Below are positions 17,440 to 44,471 of a stretch of 64,000 nucleotides of DNA, piece after piece (position 1 is the stretch's first letter; every line of letters starts with the position of its first letter). The position numbers were made by a program, and so were the translations under genes. The stretch lies in NCBI GenBank assembly GCA_018675575.1, contig JABGXW010000029.1, forward strand, positions 21,412 through 85,411. The letters run 5' to 3'. Origin of the DNA: Bacteriovoracaceae bacterium (GTDB taxonomy: Bacteria; Bdellovibrionota; Bacteriovoracia; Bacteriovoracales; Bacteriovoracaceae). The notes under the pieces are model-generated. The model ran no database searches. It was not told the origin of the DNA and worked only from the letters and a program-made list of their open reading frames with translations.

Positions 17440-19242
17440 CTAAGGTAGTAGAAAAGGGTCCGCAGCTCCACCAATTTGAGGTTTACAACAAAGGATTCTG
17501 TTTGGAATATTTGCAGAAGTGGTCCGCATCCCTCTCATCACCCCTCGTCGGCACTTCCAATACCTTAAACCATTAACATTACTTGTATAACCATATTGGT
17601 AACAACTACTATTATCAAAGTTACCCCCCTCATACTTTAGATGGATTGTGTCTGATCTGCAGTAGCTATTAGAACATACTTGCGTACAATTATTGGCAGC
17701 ATCACAACGGGTATCAAGCGCAATTTTGCTAATACAGTCCACAAGTACTCTACCGGAGACGGGTCCTGAACCAGTAGGACTCCAACTGACATTTGTTACA
17801 ACTTTATTACCAACAGGGACAGCTGAGCAAGCACCAGTATAAATTCTGCTTATATTTCCCATGGTATAATCGTTAATAACATTTTTTAGATTAGTCAAGG
17901 CCCATGAACTGTTTACGCTGGCGAGTATACTCTCTGTGATGGCCTGTTTCTGCTGATTATTAAATGTTCCAGCAAAATGATCAAAAACCCATTTTTGCGT
18001 AACTGCGTAATTAGCACTATGCCCATTACAGTTCCCGCCAACATTACAGTCAGGGATTGATCCAAAAATTCTTATTGTTCCACCAGTAGTTAAATTATTG
18101 CCAACAGTTACATTATTGCCAACGATCGCATCTGTTCCAACATTTAAAGTGGTGTCCAATGCGGTTGCGAGTGTAGCATGCAAGGTACCAGTAACATCTG
18201 TATTACCTACGATTGTTGTTGCTCCGGCTATACCAACTGTACCTGTAATAGCTGTATTGCCTACTATCCCCATAGTTCCTGTAACAGTGGTATTACCAAC
18301 AATTGCTGTAGGACCAGTTATATTAACTGGTCCTACAAAGGTAGATGGCTGGGCCCCTGCTACCCCCGTACCAACACCAAATGGACCTTCATCAATCAAC
18401 ACTGGTCCAAAAAAATTAGCCGAAGTTGGAGTTCCGGCCAAACCTACGTTCATCATACCATTGAATTGGGTAGCGATATCCCCGACAGTAGTTATTGATG
18501 GGATAGCAGGGTCGTTTGTTCGAATTGTAATATTTGTACAGAAAGGTGGAGCTGTGTAGTCACCTCCTATGGATGCACATGAAGCTGTTACAAAACTTTC
18601 TTCATCGGAGGCACACTCCAAGAGTACATTATCAGCAACCCGCCTAACCAATACCAGCTGAACTTCTTCTTCCGAAGTCATATTACCATAAGTATTAGTT
18701 GCGGTGTTACCAGCCTTTGTATAAGTAATTGTTAATGTTGCGTTTCCTTGTTGTCTATTTTCAATGACGGGTCCAACAGGATTTAAAGTAAAAGCATAAG
18801 GGGCACCCACATCCGACCAATCGTTCAATACAATACTTGTAATATCTAACCTATTTGTGATCCCAAGAAAATGCATCCCTCTACCATCGCCATTAGGTCC
18901 AGAAGTTACACTTGTCGAGGCTACCTCCGAATTAGCTGCTATGCTTCTCCAAATATCAGTCAACACCAAGTCGTCACCATCAGCTAGTGTATTTGTTCCA
19001 AATGGTACTGCTCCAACAGACCGCTTACAAGCATCGAGATCCTGTAAAGCTCCTCGAACCTTTCGGATATTTTCAAAACGCCGCTCACGCATAACGGAAT
19101 AACCTTGATTTTTCGTCATGTTATCCATCACTGACATGGTTCCCAGAGAAATAACTCCCAACATGCCAGAGGCCACGAGCACCTCAACAAGAGAAAACCC
19201 CGACTCATTGTAATACTTAGGTATGGTGAAAAAGTTTTTCAT
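17440..19242 (-). CDS. Large type IV pilin-like protein (prepilin N-methylation signal, beta-solenoid-like Gly/Thr/Val repeats, Cys-rich C-terminal region)
   Basis: The leader MKNFFTIPKYYNESG is followed by FSLVEVLVASGMLGVISLG, giving G(-1), F(+1), E(+5) and the hydrophobic alpha1 helix. aa 265-395 hold GNTxVTGT-type repeats. There are 16 Cys residues, 12 of them in aa 399-586. SD AGGA lies 8 nt before the ATG. Confidence 0.7.
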   Translation of the reverse strand: MKNFFTIPKYYNESGFSLVEVLVASGMLGVISLGTMSVMDNMTKNQGYSVMRERRFENIRKVRGALQDLDACKRSVGAVPFGTNTLADGDDLVLTDIWRSIAANSEVASTSVTSGPNGDGRGMHFLGITNRLDITSIVLNDWSDVGAPYAFTLNPVGPVIENRQQGNATLTITYTKAGNTATNTYGNMTSEEEVQLVLVRRVADNVLLECASDEESFVTASCASIGGDYTAPPFCTNITIRTNDPAIPSITTVGDIATQFNGMMNVGLAGTPTSANFFGPVLIDEGPFGVGTGVAGAQPSTFVGPVNITGPTAIVGNTTVTGTMGIVGNTAITGTVGIAGATTIVGNTDVTGTLHATLATALDTTLNVGTDAIVGNNVTVGNNLTTGGTIRIFGSIPDCNVGGNCNGHSANYAVTQKWVFDHFAGTFNNQQKQAITESILASVNSSWALTNLKNVINDYTMGNISRIYTGACSAVPVGNKVVTNVSWSPTGSGPVSGRVLVDCISKIALDTRCDAANNCTQVCSNSYCRSDTIHLKYEGGNFDNSSCYQYGYTSNVNGLRYWKCRRGVMRGMRTTSANIPNRILCCKPQIGGAADPFLLP

Positions 19243-32187: not shown

Positions 32188-32877
32188 GTGAAACATATTC
32201 ATCATAGCTCAATTGATTCAACTTCTTTGTTTTTGAAAAATAATTTCAATAAGTTTATCGCTGAAGATCAACAAATATTAGTAAGCACGGATAAACAGAC
32301 AAACGGGAGGGGGCGTTCAGGCCACACTTGGGAGCATCCTCTTAACTGTTTAACGTTCTCATTCACCTTAAAACCTTGTCCAATTCTAACACTCTCATCA
32401 TTAGAACTTGGAGTTTTATTGGCCCAATTCTTAAAAGGTAAGCTATATTTAAAGTGGCCCAACGATATTATTAATCTGGAGTATAAAAAATGTGGTGGCA
32501 TTCTTTGTCAGGTTATAGACAAAGAACATCTTGTAATTGGAATTGGTATAAACGCCGGAAAATTTTTAAGCACAGATTATCAATTTGATTATCCAATAGG
32601 ATCAGTCGATTCGGATCTTGTTCTAGAAAAAGAAGAATATAAAAATCTTCCCTTAGCTATCTATCAATATATTCTTGATAATAGATTAAGGCCTTTGGAC
32701 ATTATTAAATCATGGAATACTTATTGTTTTCATGCTGACAAAAAAGTTAAAATTGTCGATGGAAATACTTCTCATGAGGGCATCTTTAAACGAATAGATA
32801 AAAATGGGGCGGCTATTTTAGAAATTAATGGTGAAGATAAAGTAATTATGTGCGGGAGCTTATTCGTTATTTCTTAA
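32188..32877 (+). CDS. birA: Biotin--[acetyl-CoA-carboxylase] ligase, group I (no N-terminal HTH)
   Basis: QTNGRGRSGHTWE (GRGRxGRxW), KWPNDI, GIGIN. The 229-aa length leaves no room for a repressor domain. GTG start. Confidence 0.8.
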   Translation: MKHIHHSSIDSTSLFLKNNFNKFIAEDQQILVSTDKQTNGRGRSGHTWEHPLNCLTFSFTLKPCPILTLSSLELGVLLAQFLKGKLYLKWPNDIINLEYKKCGGILCQVIDKEHLVIGIGINAGKFLSTDYQFDYPIGSVDSDLVLEKEEYKNLPLAIYQYILDNRLRPLDIIKSWNTYCFHADKKVKIVDGNTSHEGIFKRIDKNGAAILEINGEDKVIMCGSLFVIS

Positions 32878-34414
32878 CAGAATCTGAAATAGACTGAATT
32901 TCTTTTGTGATTAAGTTCTGTGCCAAATCAGGAATAACTTCCCAAGAAATTTCTTCAACTTTTTCACGACATATCTCACGAATCATTTGTTCTATTTGTG
33001 GCATTAAGGATTCTTTAATCTTTTCAATAATAACTTCGTTGTCTACTTCAATCTCGAAAACTTCTTCAGCACCCAATGCTTTTTGAGCTTTCAGGAAAGA
33101 CTCTTCTTTCCGTTTAAAGTTTTCAACGTCTGCAACAGCTCCAGCACCAGAAACATAATCATCGATTTTAAACTCTTGAGTTGAGTCTTCATCTAGCCTA
33201 TAAGCGGGTGTGTTTTTATCGTCTACAGCCCAAAACTCTTCAGGAGAAGATTCATCGTGAATTTCCTGTGCCATATCATCACTTGTTGGCAGAATATTCA
33301 ATTGTGGATCTGTTTTTTCTAATTTTTCATTATACTCATTTTCATCTGGAGCAAGTTCATCTAACGAAACCAAAGTTGAAGTTGGACCCATAACTGATCC
33401 AGAATAATCGATATTAGACATGTCCGGATAAGACAAGTCCTCATCATCTGGAAAACTCATGTCCTCGTTATCTTCATCTCTAATGACTGTTGTAGCTCCC
33501 ACATTTCTTTCAATACTAAATTCACTCTCATCTTTTTTTGAAGAATCAATCATTAAGTTAATTTGTGAATTTGTTACATCAAAAGATTCTATTTCTTCTT
33601 CAGCCAATTGCTCAATGGCAATTTCTACAGCTTCTTCAATCTCTACGGGATCTTCATCCAAGATAAAGTTTTTCTTAATTTCTTCTCCTACAGCATTGAA
33701 CACTATTTTTTTTTCTTTTAATTCTTCATCGATGTGTGAAATCTCTATTTTCTTATCTTCAAAACTTTCTATTACAGGAGGAAAAATATCTTCTGAAGAC
33801 GAAGCTCCTATTATGGAAGGCATGGACATTCCCCAGCCCTGGACTTCAGATGTCAATGCACCAGGCTCTTCATTTTCGGGACCATCAACTTCCCAGCCTG
33901 ATCCGATCTCACTGGACTCGATTTCTTCAGTATTCTTTTCTGGAGATTCTCTTTCAATATCAAATTCTAAAGTAGAAGATTCTACTTCTTCATCACTATT
34001 CTCTTTGGATCTAAATTCAATAGTCTCTTCCAGAGGAGCTTTTTCTTCACACGTTGAAATAAGTTTTTCACATATTGAAATAAATTTTGAACTTTCAAAT
34101 GGTTTAACAATGTGATCTATATTTTTAAAATCACCTAAGTTAATTTCATCAGTATTATCAAAAGTTCCTAACATTACTAGGATGGGTAAATTTGCATTCT
34201 TTGCTCTAATTACTCCGATGAGTTCATTACCAGATTTGTTTTCGGATAAATTAAAATCCAACAATACGAGATCAAATAATTTTGACTCTAAAGAATTCAT
34301 CAACTCATCTTCAGTCAACGCTTGAAAAAGTTCATGATCAGTATCGGACAAAGTTATTCCGACTACTTTTTGAATGGTAAGGCTGTCATCAGCCACTAAA
34401 ATTCTGTTAGACAT
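32867..34414 (-). CDS. Response regulator (REC domain) with long acidic linker and C-terminal domain of unknown function
   Basis: ILVADDS...LVLLDFNL...VKPF receiver pattern in aa 1-120. The rest is Glu/Asp/Ser-rich. Confidence 0.7.
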   Translation of the reverse strand: MSNRILVADDSLTIQKVVGITLSDTDHELFQALTEDELMNSLESKLFDLVLLDFNLSENKSGNELIGVIRAKNANLPILVMLGTFDNTDEINLGDFKNIDHIVKPFESSKFISICEKLISTCEEKAPLEETIEFRSKENSDEEVESSTLEFDIERESPEKNTEEIESSEIGSGWEVDGPENEEPGALTSEVQGWGMSMPSIIGASSSEDIFPPVIESFEDKKIEISHIDEELKEKKIVFNAVGEEIKKNFILDEDPVEIEEAVEIAIEQLAEEEIESFDVTNSQINLMIDSSKKDESEFSIERNVGATTVIRDEDNEDMSFPDDEDLSYPDMSNIDYSGSVMGPTSTLVSLDELAPDENEYNEKLEKTDPQLNILPTSDDMAQEIHDESSPEEFWAVDDKNTPAYRLDEDSTQEFKIDDYVSGAGAVADVENFKRKEESFLKAQKALGAEEVFEIEVDNEVIIEKIKESLMPQIEQMIREICREKVEEISWEVIPDLAQNLITKEIQSISDSVKK

Positions 34415-34488
34415 TATTTCCTCTTCTACATTCTCACCTAATCTCGCCTACTTCGCAACACACGAAGTAAGAAATTTAGAAAATAGTA

Positions 34489-35226
34489 CTAAAACTGGAG
34501 GAAAATAGTCGTTTGATTATCGAGGTTCCCACGTGAGTTTGCTAGCTCAAACATCTCATCTATTTTTTTATTGGATGCTAGGTTTTTTTCAATGATATAT
34601 TCTATTTCCTTTTCAGAAATCCTTGCATATACACCATCTGTCATGAAGACAAATAGATCGTCTTTCAAGATTCTAATTTCATCCACCTTAAGGTGAAGAT
34701 CTTCAAATAATCCAAGACCACTGGTAGGAGCACAGTGGAAATGGGCCTCATAATCATCGTGTCCGAGATAGAGCTGGCCATCTGGCCTTGAGACCAATGA
34801 AAGATTTCCACGCCGGGATAAATAACAAAGGCAGTTCCCTGTTGAAACCAAAGTCATAATATTATCCGCAACAGACGCCCCTATGACCGAGGCCCCTCCA
34901 CGCTGATTCATTTCTTTATCGAGATTCATATCTTTAATTGTTGCATGGGCATAATGCATCGAATTGATCAAAGCATTGCCTTCTAATAAGTATTTATGGG
35001 AGTAATAAAATGGAAGGGTTGAATCAGGATCACCACCTATTTTAGTATAGAATTTTTTAATCGTTTCTTTAGCTACTTTTACTGTTTCATCCCCAACATT
35101 AGACCCGCCAAAACCATCCATTATCAGAAATAATTTATTTATCAGATCTATATCTTGCCCATCTTCATTAACTTGCAAGTACGGTCCTTGGTCTGTTCTG
35201 GCTGCGTATGATTTTAATTGATTCAT
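34489..35226 (-). CDS. PP2C-family Ser/Thr protein phosphatase
   Basis: RTDQG...VNED, MDGFGG, MTDG and DNQT blocks in the canonical order. Confidence 0.8.
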   Translation of the reverse strand: MNQLKSYAARTDQGPYLQVNEDGQDIDLINKLFLIMDGFGGSNVGDETVKVAKETIKKFYTKIGGDPDSTLPFYYSHKYLLEGNALINSMHYAHATIKDMNLDKEMNQRGGASVIGASVADNIMTLVSTGNCLCYLSRRGNLSLVSRPDGQLYLGHDDYEAHFHCAPTSGLGLFEDLHLKVDEIRILKDDLFVFMTDGVYARISEKEIEYIIEKNLASNKKIDEMFELANSRGNLDNQTTIFLQF

Positions 35227-35228
35227 AA

Positions 35229-37718
35229 TTAATCCAAATAATCTTTAAGTTTAAGGGTAGCTTTTTTGTAATAATCACTATCAGAAGGAGCGATCTGCTG
35301 AACTTCTTGAAATTTTTCTTTTGCATCATTAAATAAACTTAGAGATTCGGAGATCAAAGCCTCTCTATAAATCTTCCGAGATCTAATCGTTAATTTTTCT
35401 CTTATTTCATTCATTTCATTAAGAGCTTCATCATATGTTGGATCAGTTTCTAGAATCTCAGCGTAAACTTCATATGCTCCTTTTAAGTCTTGACCTTCTG
35501 ACAGGGATCTCGCTTTTCCAATCAACGGATTCACAATATCGCTGATTGTTTTTTTGGACTCTTCTAACATTTTTGTTGCATCTGTTACAAGATCTTCATC
35601 CATTTGTTTCAATCTTAAAAAGTCTTCTAGCTTAAGAACGGCTTTGTACCATTCTTTTTTAAGATAAAATGATTTACCAGGAGCTAAGGCATCTACCATT
35701 CGTTTTCTATCTGCCTCTTTTTGAGCTTTTTCAATCGCAATTCTATCTTGTTCTTTTTTCCAAGCTTCTATTTCAATTTTTAATTGTGGGATATCAAAGT
35801 TATCAGGATCAAGCTCTAAAATTTGTGAGAAGAATGCCTCAGCAGCATCTGACTTTCTTTCTTTCACTGCTTTTTGTGCTCGCTTAACAAGCTCTTTAAC
35901 TTTTGCCATTCTTTGTTTTCGATCTATCTCTGCTTGTTGTTTTCGCTCTAGTTCTTCAAGTTTTGAAAGACCTTGCTTAGCAACTTCTCTCAAAGTAGAG
36001 GTTTGTTTATAGTCATTTATATTTGCTTGTTTAAGTTTTAGTTGAATTTTATCAAGTTCAGAGAGTGATTCTCTATATTTCCCCTGATCAATAAACTCTT
36101 TTGCTAAGAGGTAAGTCCCCTCCAGAAACTCTAACTCTTCAGAATTGAATTTTTTAATTAGTTTGTTCTTACTATTTTTTATCTTTTTCTTTTTATCAAG
36201 AAGTCTCGATTTTTCTTCTTTGCTAATAATTTTTTTTACAGGTTTTTCCTCATCTAACATAACCCATAATCCAATCAGTACTACAGCATAAATTAAAAGT
36301 TTCTTTCTTTTTTCTGGGTCCTTTAATTTGTCTGCGAAGGATCCAGAAGATGCCGTAGCTCCAGCGTCTAAAGCAAACTCTCCTCCAGATTTTTCAGCAA
36401 AAAGCTCTCTTACGCTAGTTTTTTCAGCATAATCTTCAGAGACCTCTACAATTTCCTCTACTTCAACCATCTGATTTTCTTCAACCGGCATGAGTCGTTC
36501 AGACTCTTGTTGAATAAGTTCTGAAATAACATGAACTGTAAAGGTTGTACTCCCTATTATAAACTCATCGTTATTGGTCAATCCTGATTTATTAATTCTT
36601 TCGCCATTTAATAACGTACCATTACCAGAATTTAAATCTTCAATAACACATGTAATATTATTTTTCTTAAGAATTGCGTGTTGACCAGATACTTCGGGAT
36701 CATTTAATATGATGTCACATTTTTCAGGATCACGGCCAATTATTGTTTCTGTCTTATCGACAATAAATTTATCAAAGGGAGCTAATTCACCAAAAATTTC
36801 TAACTCAAACCTTGCGAAAGCTGACATAACCTGAGTCTTGTCATCATCACCGTAGGTATCTACTCCGAATTCCTCTTCAGTGTATTCTCCATCTTCAAAA
36901 CCTTCTTCTGCCACATTTCCAGCTTCAAAACCCTCGGTAGCTTCATCCCCGAATAGTTCGTCATCATCTTTTGATTCAGGATCGAAACCTTCTTCACTTA
37001 GGTTGAACATTCCGGTTGGTTCATCAACACTTCCTTCATCATCACTAGGAACCGTGTTAGTTGGTGCCCCATCAATATCAAAATCATCATCAGAGTTATT
37101 TGAATCCCCAAAGTCTGTACTCGTAAAATCAGGACTTTCAGCAAGCTGTTCTTCATCTACAGCAACTTCTTCCTCTGTAGACACAGATTCATTACTGGTA
37201 AAACCAGGGTTATCTATGACCTGGTCGCCCTCACCATTGATTATAAAATCATCTTCCAAAGTATTGTCGGCGTCTCCCCCTGGTGGCGAAGTATCCGAAG
37301 GTTGCTCCATGATCGTGTTTGTCTGATCATTAATATCAGAGGAGGGTAATGTTTGGGTTTCATTACTAAGCATGTCTACTGGTTCCGATATTATTTGAGC
37401 TGAGTTTAGTAATCCAAAGGTATTAATTACATAAGGGCCAATCGTAACAACATCACCATTGTTTAATTCTTTTGAATCTGTGAGAACACCATTTATAATG
37501 AGTCCTCCAAATCCTGACACTTGATTTATTTTCCAACTTCCTGATTTAAAAGAAATTCGAGCATGTTCACGCGAAACCTTTTTATCGTCCAAATGAATAT
37601 GGCAATCCTCGGATCGACCAATATAGAAAGAGATTTCCGAATCATCTAATCCAATGATTTCTGAGGACAAATCGACCTCGTCTAAATGTGTATTATTTTT
37701 GAATACACTTAATTTCAT
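35229..37718 (-). CDS. Double-FHA-domain membrane protein with acidic linker and C-terminal TPR/coiled-coil region
   Basis: FHA 1: IGRSEDCHIHLDDKKVSREHARI...NG. FHA 2: IGRDPEKCDIILNDPEVSGQHAIL...DLNSGNGTLLNG. One TM (LLIYAVVLIGLWVML). TPR-like C-terminus. Confidence 0.7.
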   Translation of the reverse strand: MKLSVFKNNTHLDEVDLSSEIIGLDDSEISFYIGRSEDCHIHLDDKKVSREHARISFKSGSWKINQVSGFGGLIINGVLTDSKELNNGDVVTIGPYVINTFGLLNSAQIISEPVDMLSNETQTLPSSDINDQTNTIMEQPSDTSPPGGDADNTLEDDFIINGEGDQVIDNPGFTSNESVSTEEEVAVDEEQLAESPDFTSTDFGDSNNSDDDFDIDGAPTNTVPSDDEGSVDEPTGMFNLSEEGFDPESKDDDELFGDEATEGFEAGNVAEEGFEDGEYTEEEFGVDTYGDDDKTQVMSAFARFELEIFGELAPFDKFIVDKTETIIGRDPEKCDIILNDPEVSGQHAILKKNNITCVIEDLNSGNGTLLNGERINKSGLTNNDEFIIGSTTFTVHVISELIQQESERLMPVEENQMVEVEEIVEVSEDYAEKTSVRELFAEKSGGEFALDAGATASSGSFADKLKDPEKRKKLLIYAVVLIGLWVMLDEEKPVKKIISKEEKSRLLDKKKKIKNSKNKLIKKFNSEELEFLEGTYLLAKEFIDQGKYRESLSELDKIQLKLKQANINDYKQTSTLREVAKQGLSKLEELERKQQAEIDRKQRMAKVKELVKRAQKAVKERKSDAAEAFFSQILELDPDNFDIPQLKIEIEAWKKEQDRIAIEKAQKEADRKRMVDALAPGKSFYLKKEWYKAVLKLEDFLRLKQMDEDLVTDATKMLEESKKTISDIVNPLIGKARSLSEGQDLKGAYEVYAEILETDPTYDEALNEMNEIREKLTIRSRKIYREALISESLSLFNDAKEKFQEVQQIAPSDSDYYKKATLKLKDYLD

Positions 37719-38718
37719 CTTTAAACTTTCCCATTTCTTTTTCTACGGTTCTAATATTTTTCATTGCATCTTTGTATCTTTCATCTTCTTTATGCGCTTG
37801 TAGTAATCTTACAATTGAACAATAAGAAACCACTGCTGCAGTATATTTCAATCCATCAGCATCCCTTCTTGCTTTTAAAAATGCTAACTCAATTTCTTCA
37901 TCTAGCCTTTGTTTCGAACGCTCTAAATGAAAACTCGCCTTTCCATTATTTGGACTTAAAATAAGTGCTAATTCAAATTGCCGAATTGCTCGAAAATAAT
38001 TACGTTCTCTAAATTCTCGCAATCCTCTATGAATAATAGCATCCAATTTCCTCTGCACTTCCCTTGTTTCAGAAGTTTGCTTTCTAAGTGCATCTTGTAA
38101 ATTTATCTTCGTCGATTTTTCTTTGCTTGATTTTGTTTTTTTTATAACGGGGGGAGGAGTGTCCTCATCCAAGACAACCCAGATAACTAACGCCGCAACA
38201 ATAATTATCATAATACGTTTGCGACCGGCATCGGCTTGCTTCTTTCTATTCTTACTTTTTTTCTTCTTTTTCTTCTCATTTAATAATCTACGTTCTTCCT
38301 CTTCCTCTTCATCTTCATCTTCATCATCTTCATCCTCATCATCAACAAGGGCCAATTCTTTTGCTTGAATATCAAATCGATTAAATTTATATACTGTGGC
38401 GCCAATGATAATCTTATCGCCATCAATGAGACTATGTTGGGTGATTTTTAAATCATTAATAATCAACCCATTTTGTGAAGCAAGATCAGTCACAATATAG
38501 CGGCCATTATTTAAAATAAGCTCTGCGTGCTCTCTAGAAGATTTGATATCCAGTACTTGGATATCCGCAGTTTCACCTCTTCCCATTATAACTCTGTTAC
38601 CAGTCAGATAATAAGAACTTCCCTTGTTTTTGCCTGTCATACAAAGAAGCCGATAATGAAGTCCGACCTCCTCAGGGGGAAGCATATTTCTAATTAATTT
38701 GACATTAAGTGCGCTCAT
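37693..38718 (-). CDS. FHA-domain membrane protein with charge-block linker and TPR-like C-terminus
   Basis: FHA: MGRGETADIQVLDIKSSREHAEL...DLASQNGLIIN. Acidic run DDEDEDDEDEDEEEEEE, then KKKKKKSKNRKK, then one TM. Confidence 0.7.
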   Translation of the reverse strand: MSALNVKLIRNMLPPEEVGLHYRLLCMTGKNKGSSYYLTGNRVIMGRGETADIQVLDIKSSREHAELILNNGRYIVTDLASQNGLIINDLKITQHSLIDGDKIIIGATVYKFNRFDIQAKELALVDDEDEDDEDEDEEEEEERRLLNEKKKKKKSKNRKKQADAGRKRIMIIIVAALVIWVVLDEDTPPPVIKKTKSSKEKSTKINLQDALRKQTSETREVQRKLDAIIHRGLREFRERNYFRAIRQFELALILSPNNGKASFHLERSKQRLDEEIELAFLKARRDADGLKYTAAVVSYCSIVRLLQAHKEDERYKDAMKNIRTVEKEMGKFKDEIKCIQK

Positions 38719-38727
38719 AACTATCTG

Positions 38728-40293
38728 CTAATCCTTTATAAAAGTGATATAAAAGGCCTTTGCAAAATTATCGACTCCCATCAACGCCGTGACACAAATT
38801 TTATAGTCAATTCCCTGTAATTCATAACGCCCCTCCTGTAAGTAGCCGCTATTACTGGCACTTCCATCGCACAGCTCGATGCAAGTTGCTCCAAAACCTT
38901 TTTCCCTAGAAACATCCAGTAAGCTCATATCAGAAGCTGCTGATTCTCTTATTCCGGTAAGGTCTTCACCTTCGAGATTTATATATTTCAGGTTTTTTTC
39001 TGAATTTAGAACCATAGTCGCTGTACCAGAACCTGCCATGAACTCTTTTAATAAAGAAACGTATTTTTCATCTGACTCAGCCTCTCCAAATTCATCGACT
39101 TCTTCATTTTGAAGTTCTCTATTTCTTTGTAGAATTGAATTAATTGAATCTCTTAATCCATCGAGCTCACTCATAAGATAACGACTTTTAAGATTTCTTC
39201 TTCGACCCCTCAGTGCGTCTTCAATCTGAAATTTTAGCTCTTCCAAAGGTCTGACTGTCATATAGTAGACAATTCCAAAGAAAATAATCGCGACAAGCAT
39301 AGATGTGACTATTGATTCTAAATAGGCTTTTTGTGATTTTGTAGCTTCAACAGCTAGTGATTTTGGAGCGAATCGAATCGCAATAATTCCCACGGCTTCG
39401 AAAACACCGATCTTTGCATTATAGGCCATGATTTTTTTACCAATTCCAATTTCATCACCAGATAAAATCTTCTTATAAACTTTTTTACCATTATCATCAC
39501 TGGTTTTTAAAGCCCACTCTCTCACCTGAACAGATAATGGTTCTGAAATATAGTCATTTAGTTTTTCTAGCGGTCTAACAATTCTTCCTTCAAGGTCAAA
39601 TAGTTGATAAGTTTGTACACCATCTTCTTGATTTAGAAACTCTGTATTAACCTGGTCTAAGTTTTTTGACTCTAGTGCTCTCGCATTCATTCTACCAATT
39701 TCTTCCGCATAATGTGCCCCTCTTTTTGCTGTTTCATATAGTAGAATATTTTTAGTCGATTGAAGAACTGGTGTAATGATGAGAATCACAGATGTAATAA
39801 TAAAAACAGTTAATATAATTCCAAATAAAATTCGCCACTCGTATTCTTCATTAATACCATGGACAATTCTCATGAGTTTATATTTAAATAAATGAAGTAT
39901 TTTTCCAGGCAAGTTATCAGGAGCGACTCCTCCATCTAGAAAAGACTCTTCATCTTCTTCTTCGTCCTCCTCAGAAACTACTTTGTGAATCAATATCTTT
40001 TTTTCTTCGACATATACAACCTGCATAATCAAATGAGGTAAGGTTATTTTGTCCCCATTCTTTGCAGTTGCCCTTTTAATTATTTTACCATTTAAGAAGG
40101 TTCCATTTGAACTATCGAGATCAACAATATAAGCAACATCATCTGTAACTGTGATATTCATATGTTTTTTTGAAATTCCATCGATGGTCAAAATGATGTC
40201 GCACTCATCTGATTTTCCAAAGATTGTTTCTCCGTCTTCTAAAACGAACTCTTGACCTCTTAACTTTCCACCAATTACTACTAATTTATACAT
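38728..40293 (-). CDS. FHA-domain bitopic sensor-like protein (FHA, TM, extracytoplasmic segment, TM, HAMP/PAS-like C-terminus)
   Basis: FHA: FGKSDECDIILTIDGISKKHMNI...DLDSSNGTFLNG. Two TM segments flank about 150 aa. The C-terminal ATMVLNSEKNLKYINLEGEDLTGI is PAS-like. Confidence 0.65.
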   Translation of the reverse strand: MYKLVVIGGKLRGQEFVLEDGETIFGKSDECDIILTIDGISKKHMNITVTDDVAYIVDLDSSNGTFLNGKIIKRATAKNGDKITLPHLIMQVVYVEEKKILIHKVVSEEDEEEDEESFLDGGVAPDNLPGKILHLFKYKLMRIVHGINEEYEWRILFGIILTVFIITSVILIITPVLQSTKNILLYETAKRGAHYAEEIGRMNARALESKNLDQVNTEFLNQEDGVQTYQLFDLEGRIVRPLEKLNDYISEPLSVQVREWALKTSDDNGKKVYKKILSGDEIGIGKKIMAYNAKIGVFEAVGIIAIRFAPKSLAVEATKSQKAYLESIVTSMLVAIIFFGIVYYMTVRPLEELKFQIEDALRGRRRNLKSRYLMSELDGLRDSINSILQRNRELQNEEVDEFGEAESDEKYVSLLKEFMAGSGTATMVLNSEKNLKYINLEGEDLTGIRESAASDMSLLDVSREKGFGATCIELCDGSASNSGYLQEGRYELQGIDYKICVTALMGVDNFAKAFYITFIKD

Positions 40294-40628
40294 ACTGCCT
40301 CTAAGTTATCACCTATTTTTAAATTTCCAGGTAAGAATCCTCCACTGAACTCTAAACATTGTGTGGCTGTAAAATACATCAACGTCACTCTCCAGGGTTT
40401 TATATTTTTAATAATCTTTACAATCTTTAATTTCTTATCTAAAAACATCACATCAATTGGATATTTCATAAAACATGTATGAATTGATTTGCATGGCCTT
40501 ATCCACAAACAATCAAATCCATCCAAAGACTTACTAAACATTAATCCCACTGTTCTCAAATATATTGTGTCAGCCATTTTTACTTTTTCTGCAATGACTT
40601 GATCACCCTTTGTAAGTTTCATCAACAT
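40281..40628 (-). CDS. DUF192-family protein
   Basis: 115 aa. ADT...R.VGLMF ... M..T..PIDV.FLD pattern typical of DUF192/COG1430. Confidence 0.55.
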   Translation of the reverse strand: MLMKLTKGDQVIAEKVKMADTIYLRTVGLMFSKSLDGFDCLWIRPCKSIHTCFMKYPIDVMFLDKKLKIVKIIKNIKPWRVTLMYFTATQCLEFSGGFLPGNLKIGDNLEAVCIN

Positions 40629-40629
40629 T

Positions 40630-41532
40630 CTATTGATCCTCTAAGAATTGAAGGACTAGAGGTGCCGCTACAATTAAGAAAACAGCGGGAACGATTAGAA
40701 ACATCATTGGAAAAAGGATTTTTGTAGCAGCTGTAGCCCCAGCTTTTTCAACCTCAGCTGATTTTTTCTGCCTTATTTCCATAGACAAGGCTTTTAGGAT
40801 TGGACCGATTGAAGCACCAACCGAGTCTGCTGCAATCAAGGTTGCACAAAAAGAAGACATGGTAATCATATTAATTCTCCATGCCATATTTCTCAAAGCT
40901 TCTGCCCGACTTGCACCAACCTTTATTTCTTTAAGTAAAATTGTGAATTCTTCATTGAGAGCAGAAGGTTTTGCTTTTTCTACAACCTTAGTCATAGCTG
41001 CAATAAAATCGAGACCTGCTTCAACGGAGAGAGCAAGCATGTCTACAGCAAAAGGCATATTCATCGTCACATCTTTTCTTCGCTGTTCGATCTTTCCACT
41101 TATCCAAATATTTGGATAAATATAACCCACAATCGCGATAACGGGAATTAGTCCAAGATCCCAAGTTTCTTCAAGGAATGTTCTTAATGCCATAAACATG
41201 ATGGGAAATCCTAAAATTAAAAACAATTTAAAAGAATAAAAATCCTCAGGCGTGAGATATTCTGTTAATCCACTACTTGCCAATTTTCTCCGATAAGCTT
41301 TCTTAAATTTAGACTTTGCCTTCATCTGTGCAACCATTGGTGAAGCATACCGCTTAAAAAATGGACGAGAATATTTTAAGATAATTCCATGATTATCTAC
41401 GGCCTTTTTACTTGATACATCCGCATCTTCAATCTTTTCTTGGGCCTTGAATTCTTCTTCATCTTGAAACATCGTGTTCGTGATAATAAAAATAGCAATC
41501 CCAATAAATACAATAGCTGCCCACATTAACAT
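40630..41532 (-). CDS. Type II secretion system F-domain protein (TadB/TadC-type pilus platform protein)
   Basis: 300 aa with an N-terminal TM, a cytoplasmic helical T2SSF domain (MPFAVDMLALSVEAGLDF, RAEALRNMA) and two C-terminal TMs. This is the single-domain Tad-type architecture. Confidence 0.7.
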   Translation of the reverse strand: MLMWAAIVFIGIAIFIITNTMFQDEEEFKAQEKIEDADVSSKKAVDNHGIILKYSRPFFKRYASPMVAQMKAKSKFKKAYRRKLASSGLTEYLTPEDFYSFKLFLILGFPIMFMALRTFLEETWDLGLIPVIAIVGYIYPNIWISGKIEQRRKDVTMNMPFAVDMLALSVEAGLDFIAAMTKVVEKAKPSALNEEFTILLKEIKVGASRAEALRNMAWRINMITMSSFCATLIAADSVGASIGPILKALSMEIRQKKSAEVEKAGATAATKILFPMMFLIVPAVFLIVAAPLVLQFLEDQ

Positions 41533-41676
41533 GGGTATTTCTCCTATTCTTAAATACTTGCATTATAATGATGCACCTATATATAGATTACCAAATAGTA
41601 GAGAGTTTGCTTCAAAGTGGTAAATTTATCCAATTTTCAGAGAGATAGCTCGATTTAAAATGTGTCTTTTTTGTGG

Positions 41677-42828: not shown

Positions 42829-43602
42829 TCAATGTTTTTTTGTAATAGAAAGACCCTGAGACACCCAAAACATCTTTGATAAATTATTTTTATTATCAAT
42901 AAAGTAAAAGATAGATTGTCCCGAAAACTTTAATGTGAATCTCCTTTCTCCATTACTATTTTTTCCATCATATTCTAAAGAGGCATTTGAAAAAACCTCA
43001 TTTGGCATATTAAGATATTGTTCCTGAAAATAAGGATAGCCTGCCCAGATGACAAGTATCTTCATAGAGCCGGCTTGTCTCTTTGTTGCTTCATCAAGAA
43101 ATCCCGTTAGATTTGCACATTCAATCACCTGAGAAAAATAACAATAGACACCAGTCATTGGCGGAAATTTCAGCCTCGATTCTCCCTGCCATTGTTTTTC
43201 GGGTGAGTTTAATTTAATAAGCATAGATTTATCTTTGGGCGATATTTCCATTTCTGTAAAATATTTTTTCTTTTCAAACCAAACAGTATACTGAGAAATA
43301 CTTGGACGCATGACATTTACACCTTTCACAGATCCTGGAGTAGAGATGACGATACTTTTTTCGAGTAATTTTCTATCTGAGTTATAAGAAAAAATTTGTC
43401 GTTTGGTAATATACTGATTTTTAGACTTTATGTAGCCAGACTCTCTTCTTAATTCAAACTTTCCCGACTTATCAACGAGGTTGAAAGTAGTGACAATTGC
43501 CCCTCCACTAAGTGTCTTATCTTTTCTTAATGCCCTACTGAAAAATCCACAAGAGCTTATTTGAAAACAAATGAGAAGACGAATGAGAAAATTAGTCCTC
43601 AT
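42829..43602 (-). CDS. Hypothetical secreted protein or lipoprotein
   Basis: Hydrophobic leader with a possible lipobox (ISS-C). No family motif recognised. Confidence 0.35.
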   Translation of the reverse strand: MRTNFLIRLLICFQISSCGFFSRALRKDKTLSGGAIVTTFNLVDKSGKFELRRESGYIKSKNQYITKRQIFSYNSDRKLLEKSIVISTPGSVKGVNVMRPSISQYTVWFEKKKYFTEMEISPKDKSMLIKLNSPEKQWQGESRLKFPPMTGVYCYFSQVIECANLTGFLDEATKRQAGSMKILVIWAGYPYFQEQYLNMPNEVFSNASLEYDGKNSNGERRFTLKFSGQSIFYFIDNKNNLSKMFWVSQGLSITKKH

Positions 43603-44471
43603 TATTTTATAAAATCTTCAAAATCTTTTTGATCTTTTTCTGTAGATCCATTTTCATCGATCTTGTCTTTTATTTTCCTTCTGAGATCATGATTATGATC
43701 AAACTCAAAACCAATTTTTGACATAGGAACTAAACCCGAGCGTGGATTTACATAGTCGACATTATAGATTATTTTTGCTTTTCGAAGATTAAAAACTTCT
43801 CCTTCGAATAGTAATGTCATTTCAAAGGTTTTATCAGAATCTTTAAAGTATAATTTTTCACTCTCGCTTGAAATAAAAGCTATTCCCTTATACGAGACAT
43901 CTAAAACTCGAAAGCCAATGAGCTCCTCTTTAATTTCAGAATCAACAGAATCTTGCAGTTTTAAAATTTCATCATCAGTTAGTTTCTTAAACTTCTGAAA
44001 GACTTGGTGATTTGATTCAATTTGTTTATTAATAAAGATCAAATTGGATTCATTCGAATCGACACTCAACTTGAAATAAGTATAAACATGAAAGTGAGGG
44101 TAAGTTAATAATCTCTCATTTCCTCTTTTTTCAATTTTAAAAACATGAGGACTAAGTTCTAACCAAAAATCTTCATTGCCCAAGACTTCGACAACTTTTC
44201 CTTTGGTATAATAATCTATTCCACGGATATTAAATTGTACGAGTAAATCTTTAGGCTTCCAATCGTCAGAAATATTGCCATTTCTCAATCGCAATTGCTG
44301 AGTTCTCTCACCCTCTGCATCATCACCATGGCTATTTATTACCTTGCAAAGGTCTGGAGAATCTCCCTTCGCCCAAATCTTCACCTCTCCAGAATCTGTA
44401 ACAAGAGTAGATATGCGACTACTAAGCTCACTCCATTCCAACTCTACAAAGTTTGAATTATCCTTATTCAT
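43602..44471 (-). CDS. Hypothetical protein, tentatively PilZ-like
   Basis: RGNER (RxxxR) and LDVSYKGIAF (DxSxxG) are both present. They lie about 70 aa apart rather than the canonical 20-30 aa, so the call is weak. Confidence 0.3.
   Translation of the reverse strand: MNKDNSNFVELEWSELSSRISTLVTDSGEVKIWAKGDSPDLCKVINSHGDDAEGERTQQLRLRNGNISDDWKPKDLLVQFNIRGIDYYTKGKVVEVLGNEDFWLELSPHVFKIEKRGNERLLTYPHFHVYTYFKLSVDSNESNLIFINKQIESNHQVFQKFKKLTDDEILKLQDSVDSEIKEELIGFRVLDVSYKGIAFISSESEKLYFKDSDKTFEMTLLFEGEVFNLRKAKIIYNVDYVNPRSGLVPMSKIGFEFDHNHDLRRKIKDKIDENGSTEKDQKDFEDFIK

Follow-up and report, generated by a model that had tools for sequence, protein, structure and literature searches.

A probable Bacteriovoracaceae orthologue of the Bdellovibrio tadC operon with an apparently active PP2C phosphatase and a linked romR gene

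A stretch of 64,000 nt from contig JABGXW010000029.1 of a Bacteriovoracaceae bacterium (hereafter the window; coordinates count from its first letter) contains a block of seven closely packed genes on one strand, which begins with the gene of a T2SSF-domain protein and ends with that of a response regulator. This block is very probably the Bacteriovoracaceae orthologue of the Bd0470-Bd0475 tadC operon of Bdellovibrio bacteriovorus, extended by romR, with TadC as the second platform subunit of a dispersed Tad machine that has an accessory phospho-module. The present analysis establishes the orthology and synteny of the block, the domain structure of its proteins, and the intactness of their catalytic and phosphothreonine-binding residues. 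The observation is real and conserved, and it concerns an operon that is known and experimentally validated. The seven-gene set is thus not new, its first six genes being those of the published Bd0470-Bd0475 operon. What seems to be unreported is the intact PP2C in the sixth position and the physical linkage of romR to tadC, which is not mentioned in the papers that we consulted. The genes of the block, in the order of transcription, are as follows.

40630-41532, minus strand: tadC, 300 aa, PF00482
40281-40628, minus strand: DUF192 gene (Bd0471 counterpart), 115 aa, PF02643
38728-40293, minus strand: FHA1 (Bd0472 counterpart), 521 aa, one Pfam FHA domain
37693-38718, minus strand: FHA2 (Bd0473 counterpart), 341 aa, one Pfam FHA domain
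35229-37718, minus strand: FHA3 (Bd0474 counterpart), 829 aa, two Pfam FHA domains and TPR
34489-35226, minus strand: PP2C/PPM Ser/Thr phosphatase gene (Bd0475 position), 245 aa, NCBIfam Stp1
32867-34414, minus strand: romR orthologue, 515 aa, PF00072

In the list of open reading frames (ORFs), these genes are separated by gaps of 1, 9, 2 and 74 nt or overlap by 13 and 26 nt, and 144 nt lie between tadC and a nagZ-like gene upstream, exactly as the initial annotation of this DNA had described the packing. The single T2SSF-domain protein that it named passes a profile search. The DUF192 protein, the four FHA domains in three membrane proteins, and the receiver domain that it listed were recovered by Pfam, and the PP2C phosphatase was recognised with NCBIfam, in a profile search against the PDB, and from the fold predicted for it.

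The T2SSF domain of TadC (residues 163-288; PF00482, 52 bits) lies at the C-terminus of a polytopic protein of about 300 aa, in which a transmembrane scan predicted four helices. Over 287 aa, the protein is 35% identical (E 1e-52) to the product of the Bd0470-type gene of B. bacteriovorus, whereas its identity to TadB of the main tad locus is just 25% over 135 aa. Furthermore, its orthologue from Halobacteriovorax marinus was found in the KilH block of the supermatrix of Seef et al. (PMC8460266), who identified Bd0470 as the sole orthologue of Myxococcus xanthus KilH. A phmmer search of the PDB with TadC gave no match. By these comparisons, the T2SSF protein is classified as a TadC/CpaH/KilH-type inner-membrane platform subunit, not as TadB. 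In one divergent Bacteriovoracaceae-like lineage (L263:2984-4408), TadC has an extra N-terminal signal peptide and a domain of about 150 aa. A fusion of TadC with DUF192 in this 474-aa T2SSF gene was considered and rejected, as the extra part consists of that signal peptide and domain and the DUF192 gene is simply absent; the remainder of the block, including the PP2C gene and romR, is kept in this lineage.

The main tad locus is known here from the genomes of relatives. A TadA fragment of H. marinus used as a query retrieved 80 Bacteriovoracaceae tadA loci. In the closest relative (L201), the order is A24 peptidase, two small ORFs, RcpC, secretin, a 735-aa TadZ-TadA fusion, and TadB; this relative and the next closest (L205) both have a main tad locus without TadC, and exactly one T2SSF ORF was present in each of the full-length tadA loci (44/44). 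The main tad loci therefore hold exactly one platform gene, and the Tad machine would be a dispersed one whose second platform subunit, absent from the main locus, is the lone TadC of the block. In each of four genomes, a single contig carries both tadA and the tadC block, with 345-395 kb between them. Since the flanks of the block consist of housekeeping genes, no full Tad locus lies just beyond it. The initial annotation had suggested that the block forms the platform and regulatory part of a Tad-like predation machine split across loci, a reading that is borne out by the TadC/KilH orthology, the parallels with Bd0471-Bd0475, and the position of the main tad locus, about 350 kb away in relatives. 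In the closest relative, tadB of the main tad locus is immediately followed by a gene for an Rhs-repeat/DUF6531 protein (L201:12328-13956), which recalls wapA at the Bdellovibrio hit locus.

Searches with the T2SSF protein gathered 27 loci and then about 60 more, all from Bacteriovoracaceae, including H. marinus and Bacteriovorax strains. A tblastn comparison with all window proteins showed the seven genes in identical order on every contig of sufficient length, for the most part between the same flanking genes. About 90 Bacteriovoracaceae loci keep the block order at protein identities of 40-76%, and TadC of the nearest relatives is 76% identical to that of the window. This arrangement is far beyond chance. 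The source of the window is a marine, uncultured Bacteriovoracaceae bacterium, and the window sequence itself is present only in marine DNA metagenome runs. With a Bd0470-type fragment, 80 Bdellovibrio-type loci were also gathered. The order in B. bacteriovorus is TadC, DUF192, FHA (556 aa), FHA+TPR (381 aa), 2xFHA+TPR (690 aa), and a 227-aa protein. The first five window genes were detected by tblastn in 73-80 of the 80 Bdellovibrio loci, and the window PP2C and response regulator had no tblastn match in any of them.

Several studies have addressed this operon in B. bacteriovorus. Duncan (2019, PMC6561027) reported that the Bd0470::tn (tadC) mutant shows no prey attachment, killing or rounding, and that the Bd0474::tn mutant attaches to prey but cannot kill or round it. 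Bd0474 binds Bd0075 (2025 study, PMC12034629). Tesseur (2026, bioRxiv 10.64898/2026.07.08.737194) described Bdellovibrio TadC as encoded separately beside signalling genes, essential, and polar; in the same work, the polarity of the Tad machine in Bdellovibrio depends on RomR, which binds the TadZ-TadA fusion. The predation role of the tadC operon is established in B. bacteriovorus only, and the dependence on RomR likewise only in Bdellovibrio.

The sixth gene of the block encodes a protein of 245 aa that is below the Pfam cut-offs for PP2C but matches NCBIfam Stp1 (E 8e-19). A PP2C profile search of the PDB returned PppA (E 3e-14). The structural model of the protein (pLDDT 89.6) matched PppA, tPphA and PstP in Foldseek (E 2e-18, TM 0.76-0.82). 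Across 66 Bacteriovoracaceae orthologues, the metal-site residues N20-E21-D22, D37-G-F-G-G, D197-G198 and D236-N237 show no or almost no variation; apart from N20, they are either invariant or conserved to at least 98%. The sixth gene thus apparently encodes an active PP2C with an intact metal site, and the invariance of the metal ligands in the 66 orthologues argues for selection on catalysis within the operon. BLASTP of the window PP2C against Bd0475 gave no match, and the relation between the two was visible only by profile-profile comparison (hhalign of the two families: 95.6% probability, E 1e-8, 162 columns). The Bd0475 family, represented by L149:15701-16384 from B. bacteriovorus and 48 related loci, consists of remote PP2C relatives. 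Its consensus is without the PP2C metal ligands, including those of DGxGG and DG, and because of the loss of these ligands the family probably is a pseudo-phosphatase.

The 521-aa FHA1 protein has, in an AlphaFold model (pLDDT 85), an N-terminal FHA domain, a first transmembrane helix, a periplasmic alpha/beta domain, a second transmembrane helix, HAMP-like helices, and a C-terminal PAS-like domain; the combination of FHA with HAMP/PAS-like parts that had been proposed for this protein is therefore seen in the model. Its top Foldseek match is WalK (9a5d_A; 388 columns, E 7e-13). Neither HisKA nor HATPase_c was found by Pfam, and the protein stops after the PAS-like domain. On the basis of the model, FHA1 is predicted to be a kinase-less, WalK-like transmembrane sensor with the FHA domain as its sole recognisable output. 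FHA2 consists of an FHA domain, a charged linker, one transmembrane helix (169-187), and a TPR-like periplasmic domain of about 150 aa; its Bdellovibrio counterpart carries TPR. FHA3 consists of a first FHA domain (FHA-A), an acidic linker (31% D/E), a second FHA domain (FHA-B), a hydrophobic segment, and a periplasmic TPR domain. Residues 326-827 of FHA3 align to Bd0474-type genes by tblastn, and the protein has a weak match to the GltG family. Both FHA2 and FHA3 are predicted to be bitopic proteins that expose their FHA domains to the cytoplasm and their TPR-like parts to the periplasm.

We surveyed the FHA residues in 51 orthologues (the window, 25 other Bacteriovoracaceae and 25 Bdellovibrio). 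The phosphothreonine-binding G-R, S-x-x-H and N are invariant across both families in the FHA domains of FHA1 and FHA2 and in FHA-B of FHA3, with the exception of K27 in FHA1 of the window. FHA-A of FHA3 is without the conserved Asn.

The DUF192 protein (PF02643, 56 bits) has neither a signal peptide nor a transmembrane helix and is therefore probably cytoplasmic. It is encoded beside tadC at 87 of about 89 loci from Bacteriovoracaceae and at 79 of 80 from Bdellovibrio. Around the remote TadC-like genes found in Actinobacteria and Desulfobaccia, hidden Markov models of DUF192 and FHA gave no match; thus, among the sampled loci, the association seems to be confined to Bdellovibrionota. A phmmer search of the PDB with the DUF192 protein gave no match.

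The product of the seventh gene was initially called a response regulator. Its receiver domain was confirmed (PF00072, 43 bits), with D9, D10, the phospho-acceptor D53, and K104 conserved in 59 sequences, and the label can be narrowed to RomR by homology to BMS_3223 and by position. Keilberg (2012, PMC3441718) described the layout of RomR as a receiver, a lineage-specific linker, and a Glu-rich alpha-helical RomR-C with an invariant Trp and Pro, and Table S3 of that work lists BMS_3223 as RomR of Bacteriovorax marinus SJ (Halobacteriovorax marinus SJ). BMS_3223 belongs to the 90% cluster of the H. marinus homologues of the response regulator in the block. In BLASTP, the window protein aligned to BMS_3223 over residues 1-217, which comprise the receiver and the first part of the linker (E 3e-47), and again in the C-terminal part (E 2e-20). 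On the SJ chromosome, the T2SSF gene is followed by the DUF192 gene, three FHA genes, a 246-aa gene and BMS_3223, and then by a convergent ligase-like gene, RNase PH and Ham1. Because the alignment and the identical syntenic position match BMS_3223, we regard the seventh gene as a romR orthologue; this identity rests on the published computational assignment of BMS_3223. The linker of the window protein (about 315 residues) is disordered and acidic (29% D/E) and has conserved Trp-acidic motifs. A comparison of 27 diverse C-termini showed no variation of W46 and P50 in the C-terminal helix VAWEVIPDLAENLI and conservation of E54 and E60. Residues 170-400 of the linker include the family-conserved motifs GxxW(E/V)VD, GWG..P..IG, EDL.YPD, LVSLDELAP and FWAVD, which may be docking sites. 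By tblastn, the response regulator was matched in 65 Bacteriovoracaceae loci, with a full-length ORF in 58, and it directly follows the PP2C gene in two further loci, SJ and L263. Homology searches with this protein returned only unnamed Bacteriovoracaceae proteins, and a full-text literature search for its C-terminal motif gave no match.

Upstream of tadC is the following region.

41533-41676, minus strand: intergenic region upstream of tadC, with the conserved element TTTGGTAATCTATA at 41582-41595

In 13 of the 87 loci from Bacteriovoracaceae, the motif TTTGRTAWYCTAWA precedes tadC by 38-65 nt, and these sites make up 13 of its only 21 occurrences across 1.46 Mb. The window has one exact match, and the motif was not found in the tadA loci. 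The TTTGGTAATCTATA/TTTGRTAWYCTAWA element may thus be a clade-specific promoter or operator. A generic scan for sigma-70 promoters and terminators was uninformative, giving results no better than those from shuffled sequence, and a sigma-28-like motif was looked for in vain. In L004, L017, L022, L057 and L079, about 400-560 nt separate nagZ from tadC. The longer nagZ-tadC space in many relatives resembles a coding sequence for a small Cys-rich protein (e.g. ...KACDGGHDNACDYLKGG...), which is absent from the window.

According to Pfam scans, the upstream flank of the block has a PNP-family gene, mreB, two ORFs without assigned function, and a glycoside hydrolase GH3 NagZ-like gene, the last four on the same strand as the block, and the downstream flank has a convergent biotin/lipoate ligase-like gene, RNase PH and Ham1. 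The two ORFs between mreB and nagZ (42829-43602, 257 aa, and 43602-44471, 289 aa, both minus strand) are conserved and occupy the place expected for mreC and mreD; searches of Pfam and NCBIfam gave no match for either. The domain inventory of the window comprises Pfam scans of essentially all larger ORFs and a six-frame scan for the motif HRDxKxxN...DFG. As the initial annotation had reported, no Tad ATPase, secretin, Flp pilin, prepilin peptidase or Ser/Thr kinase was detected in the window: the Pfam scans of the 64 kb gave no T2SSE ATPase, secretin, Flp pilin, A24 peptidase or Pkinase, and the Hanks kinase motif HRDxKxxN...DFG was not found in any of the six frames. The sole pilin-like gene of the window encodes a 600-aa protein with a type IV pilin N-methylation motif (17440-19242, minus strand) and is unrelated to the block.

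The most likely mechanism for a Tad machine with an accessory phospho-module can be outlined. TadC would pair with TadB beneath the TadZ-TadA motor, and would be made together with the DUF192 protein, the FHA1 sensor, the FHA2 and FHA3 connectors, and the PP2C. A Ser/Thr kinase encoded elsewhere would phosphorylate threonines on Tad or polar components, and the FHA proteins would dock at the platform and read these phosphothreonine marks, with the periplasmic sensor and TPR domains coupling the reading to envelope partners or to events at the prey surface. The PP2C would erase the marks, so that pilus-dependent steps after prey contact could be gated reversibly, and RomR would supply the polar address for the Tad machine. 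The phosphorylation gate, its targets and its kinase are what we infer. A bolder proposal is that in Bacteriovoracaceae the tadC block is a complete, self-contained control unit of the predatory Tad pilus, made up of the platform subunit, the WalK-like sensor with FHA output, the two FHA-TPR connectors, an active PP2C eraser and RomR as polar hub, in which RomR or TadZA is the phosphothreonine-controlled client of the FHA domains and reversible threonine phosphorylation switches polar assembly or firing, and that this is the ancestral state, from which Bdellovibrio lost the phosphatase activity and the romR linkage; we consider this conceivable but doubtful.

Several observations weigh against a tadC operon with a working phospho-module. 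The HRD...DFG motif was found in none of the 262 loci (L001-L262), and none of the Pfam scans gave a Pkinase match, so that no writer for the phosphorylation step came to light in these scans. The relative of the PP2C that is kept in Bdellovibrio is dead, and therefore dephosphorylation by the product of the sixth gene is not essential to the conserved function. FHA1 of the window has K27 where all of the other sampled orthologues (50/50) have the canonical phosphothreonine-binding Arg. FHA domains of the SctD type in type III secretion systems work without phosphorylation. In addition, DUF192 is missing from the divergent lineage L263, and romR is set off from the rest of the block by the 74-nt gap, so that its cotranscription is putative.

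In the main rival explanation, the FHA proteins are purely structural and form a phosphorylation-independent ring or scaffold around TadB/TadC like SctD/PrgH, while the PP2C acts elsewhere or decays. In accordance with this explanation, Pfam matches each of the four FHA domains to the Yop-YscD_cpl family as well, and MXAN_4649, beside KilH, is PrgH-like (PMC8460266). The lack of a linked kinase in the 262 loci, the dead PP2C relative in Bdellovibrio, the Asn missing from FHA-A of FHA3, and K27 in FHA1 of the window would also be expected from it. However, G-R, S-x-x-H and N, which are typically not retained in SctD-type FHA domains, are invariant in three FHA domains in two families, and the PP2C metal ligands are invariant in the 66 orthologues. 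The scaffold explanation is weakened by this conservation of the phosphothreonine pockets and of the PP2C active site, and we regard it as unlikely.

Two further explanations deny the block its place in the main Tad machine. The block could be a regulator of the cell envelope or of morphogenesis, like fhaA-fhaB-pstP, tied to mreB/nagZ, with the T2SSF protein co-opted for a non-pilus role. In favour of this, the genes immediately upstream, which have the same orientation as the block, are mreB, the two ORFs and the GH3 NagZ-like gene; Bacteriovoracaceae retain this adjacency, and in NCBIfam the FHA domains of the block score best against FhaB/FipA. However, the Bdellovibrio operon is located between maf, deacetylase and sulfatase genes, so the adjacency to mreB/nagZ is not conserved; the defects of the Bd0470 and Bd0474 mutants are predation-specific (PMC6561027); and the main tad locus needs a TadC. 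Such a role is therefore highly improbable. Hardly more credible is an assignment of the T2SSF protein to a distinct, undescribed type IV filament or secretion device that would have an ATPase of its own. The extra rcpA-tadA and tadA paralogues in B. bacteriovorus would provide for such a device, but the rcpA2-tadA2 pair is dispensable in this organism and TadC co-localises with RcpA at the invasive pole (bioRxiv 10.64898/2026.07.08.737194), and every main tad locus that we examined has TadB only.

The interpretation as a tadC operon of a dispersed Tad machine bears on prey recognition and on the invasion trigger in obligate bacterial predators, for which Bd0470-Bd0475 is among the few genetically validated entry points. 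The apparently active PP2C argues that the FHA domains truly read reversible phosphothreonine marks, and the enzyme could be used for substrate trapping. The conserved linkage of romR and tadC gives comparative support, obtained independently, to the recent report that the Tad machine depends on RomR. Because the culturable H. marinus SJ and B. stolpii carry the same block, these ideas are directly testable.

Among known systems, the Bd0470-Bd0475 operon is the closest, having the same six-gene order and architecture and ending in a gene for a PP2C-fold protein; both operons are apart from a main tad locus that carries the TadZ-TadA fusion and TadB only. However, the protein identity is just 22-39%, and the sixth protein of the window has all of the metal ligands that Bd0475 has lost. 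Furthermore, romR is unlinked in Bdellovibrio (Bd2761) and follows the PP2C gene in the window, and the neighbourhood is mreB-nagZ in the window but maf, a polysaccharide deacetylase gene and a sulfatase gene in Bdellovibrio. The seventh protein resembles RomR (MXAN_4461, Bd2761, BMS_3223) in its receiver with the phospho-acceptor Asp, in having a disordered linker specific to the lineage, and in the Glu-rich helix at its C-terminus with invariant Trp and Pro, although its linker is acidic and not Pro-rich, and the M. xanthus gene is in a cheW-like/romR/valS context instead of a tadC operon. Kil cluster 2 of M. xanthus, with MXAN_4648 (FHA+TPR), MXAN_4649 (FHA/PrgH-like), KilH and KilG (Seef et al. 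2021, PMC8460266), also belongs to a split Tad-like machine of a predator and has FHA and FHA+TPR genes beside KilH. In that system, however, KilH and KilG are adjacent, the ATPase KilF itself bears an FHA domain, no linkage to DUF192, PP2C or RomR is reported, and the machine assembles at contact sites and not at the pole.

Other likenesses are more distant. In the threonine phosphorylation pathway of the H1 type VI secretion system of Pseudomonas aeruginosa (PpkA, PppA, Fha1, TagH), an FHA reader and a PP2C eraser gate an envelope-spanning machine, as they would here, and PppA is the best solved-structure match of the window PP2C. The window, however, is without a linked Hanks kinase, its FHA readers are membrane proteins with periplasmic domains, and the machine is a Tad pilus. 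For lack of such a kinase, the likeness to the PpkA/PppA/Fha1 gate does not go beyond function. FHA1 shares with WalK-type sensor kinases the order of transmembrane helix, periplasmic alpha/beta domain, transmembrane helix, HAMP and PAS, but has an N-terminal FHA domain instead of the DHp and catalytic kinase domains. Finally, the actinobacterial cluster fhaA-fhaB-pstP-rodA-pbpA-pknA-pknB also combines FHA proteins and a PP2C beside cell-shape genes; it has kinases and SEDS/PBP genes and no T2SSF gene, whereas the adjacency of the window block to mreB is not kept in Bdellovibrio.

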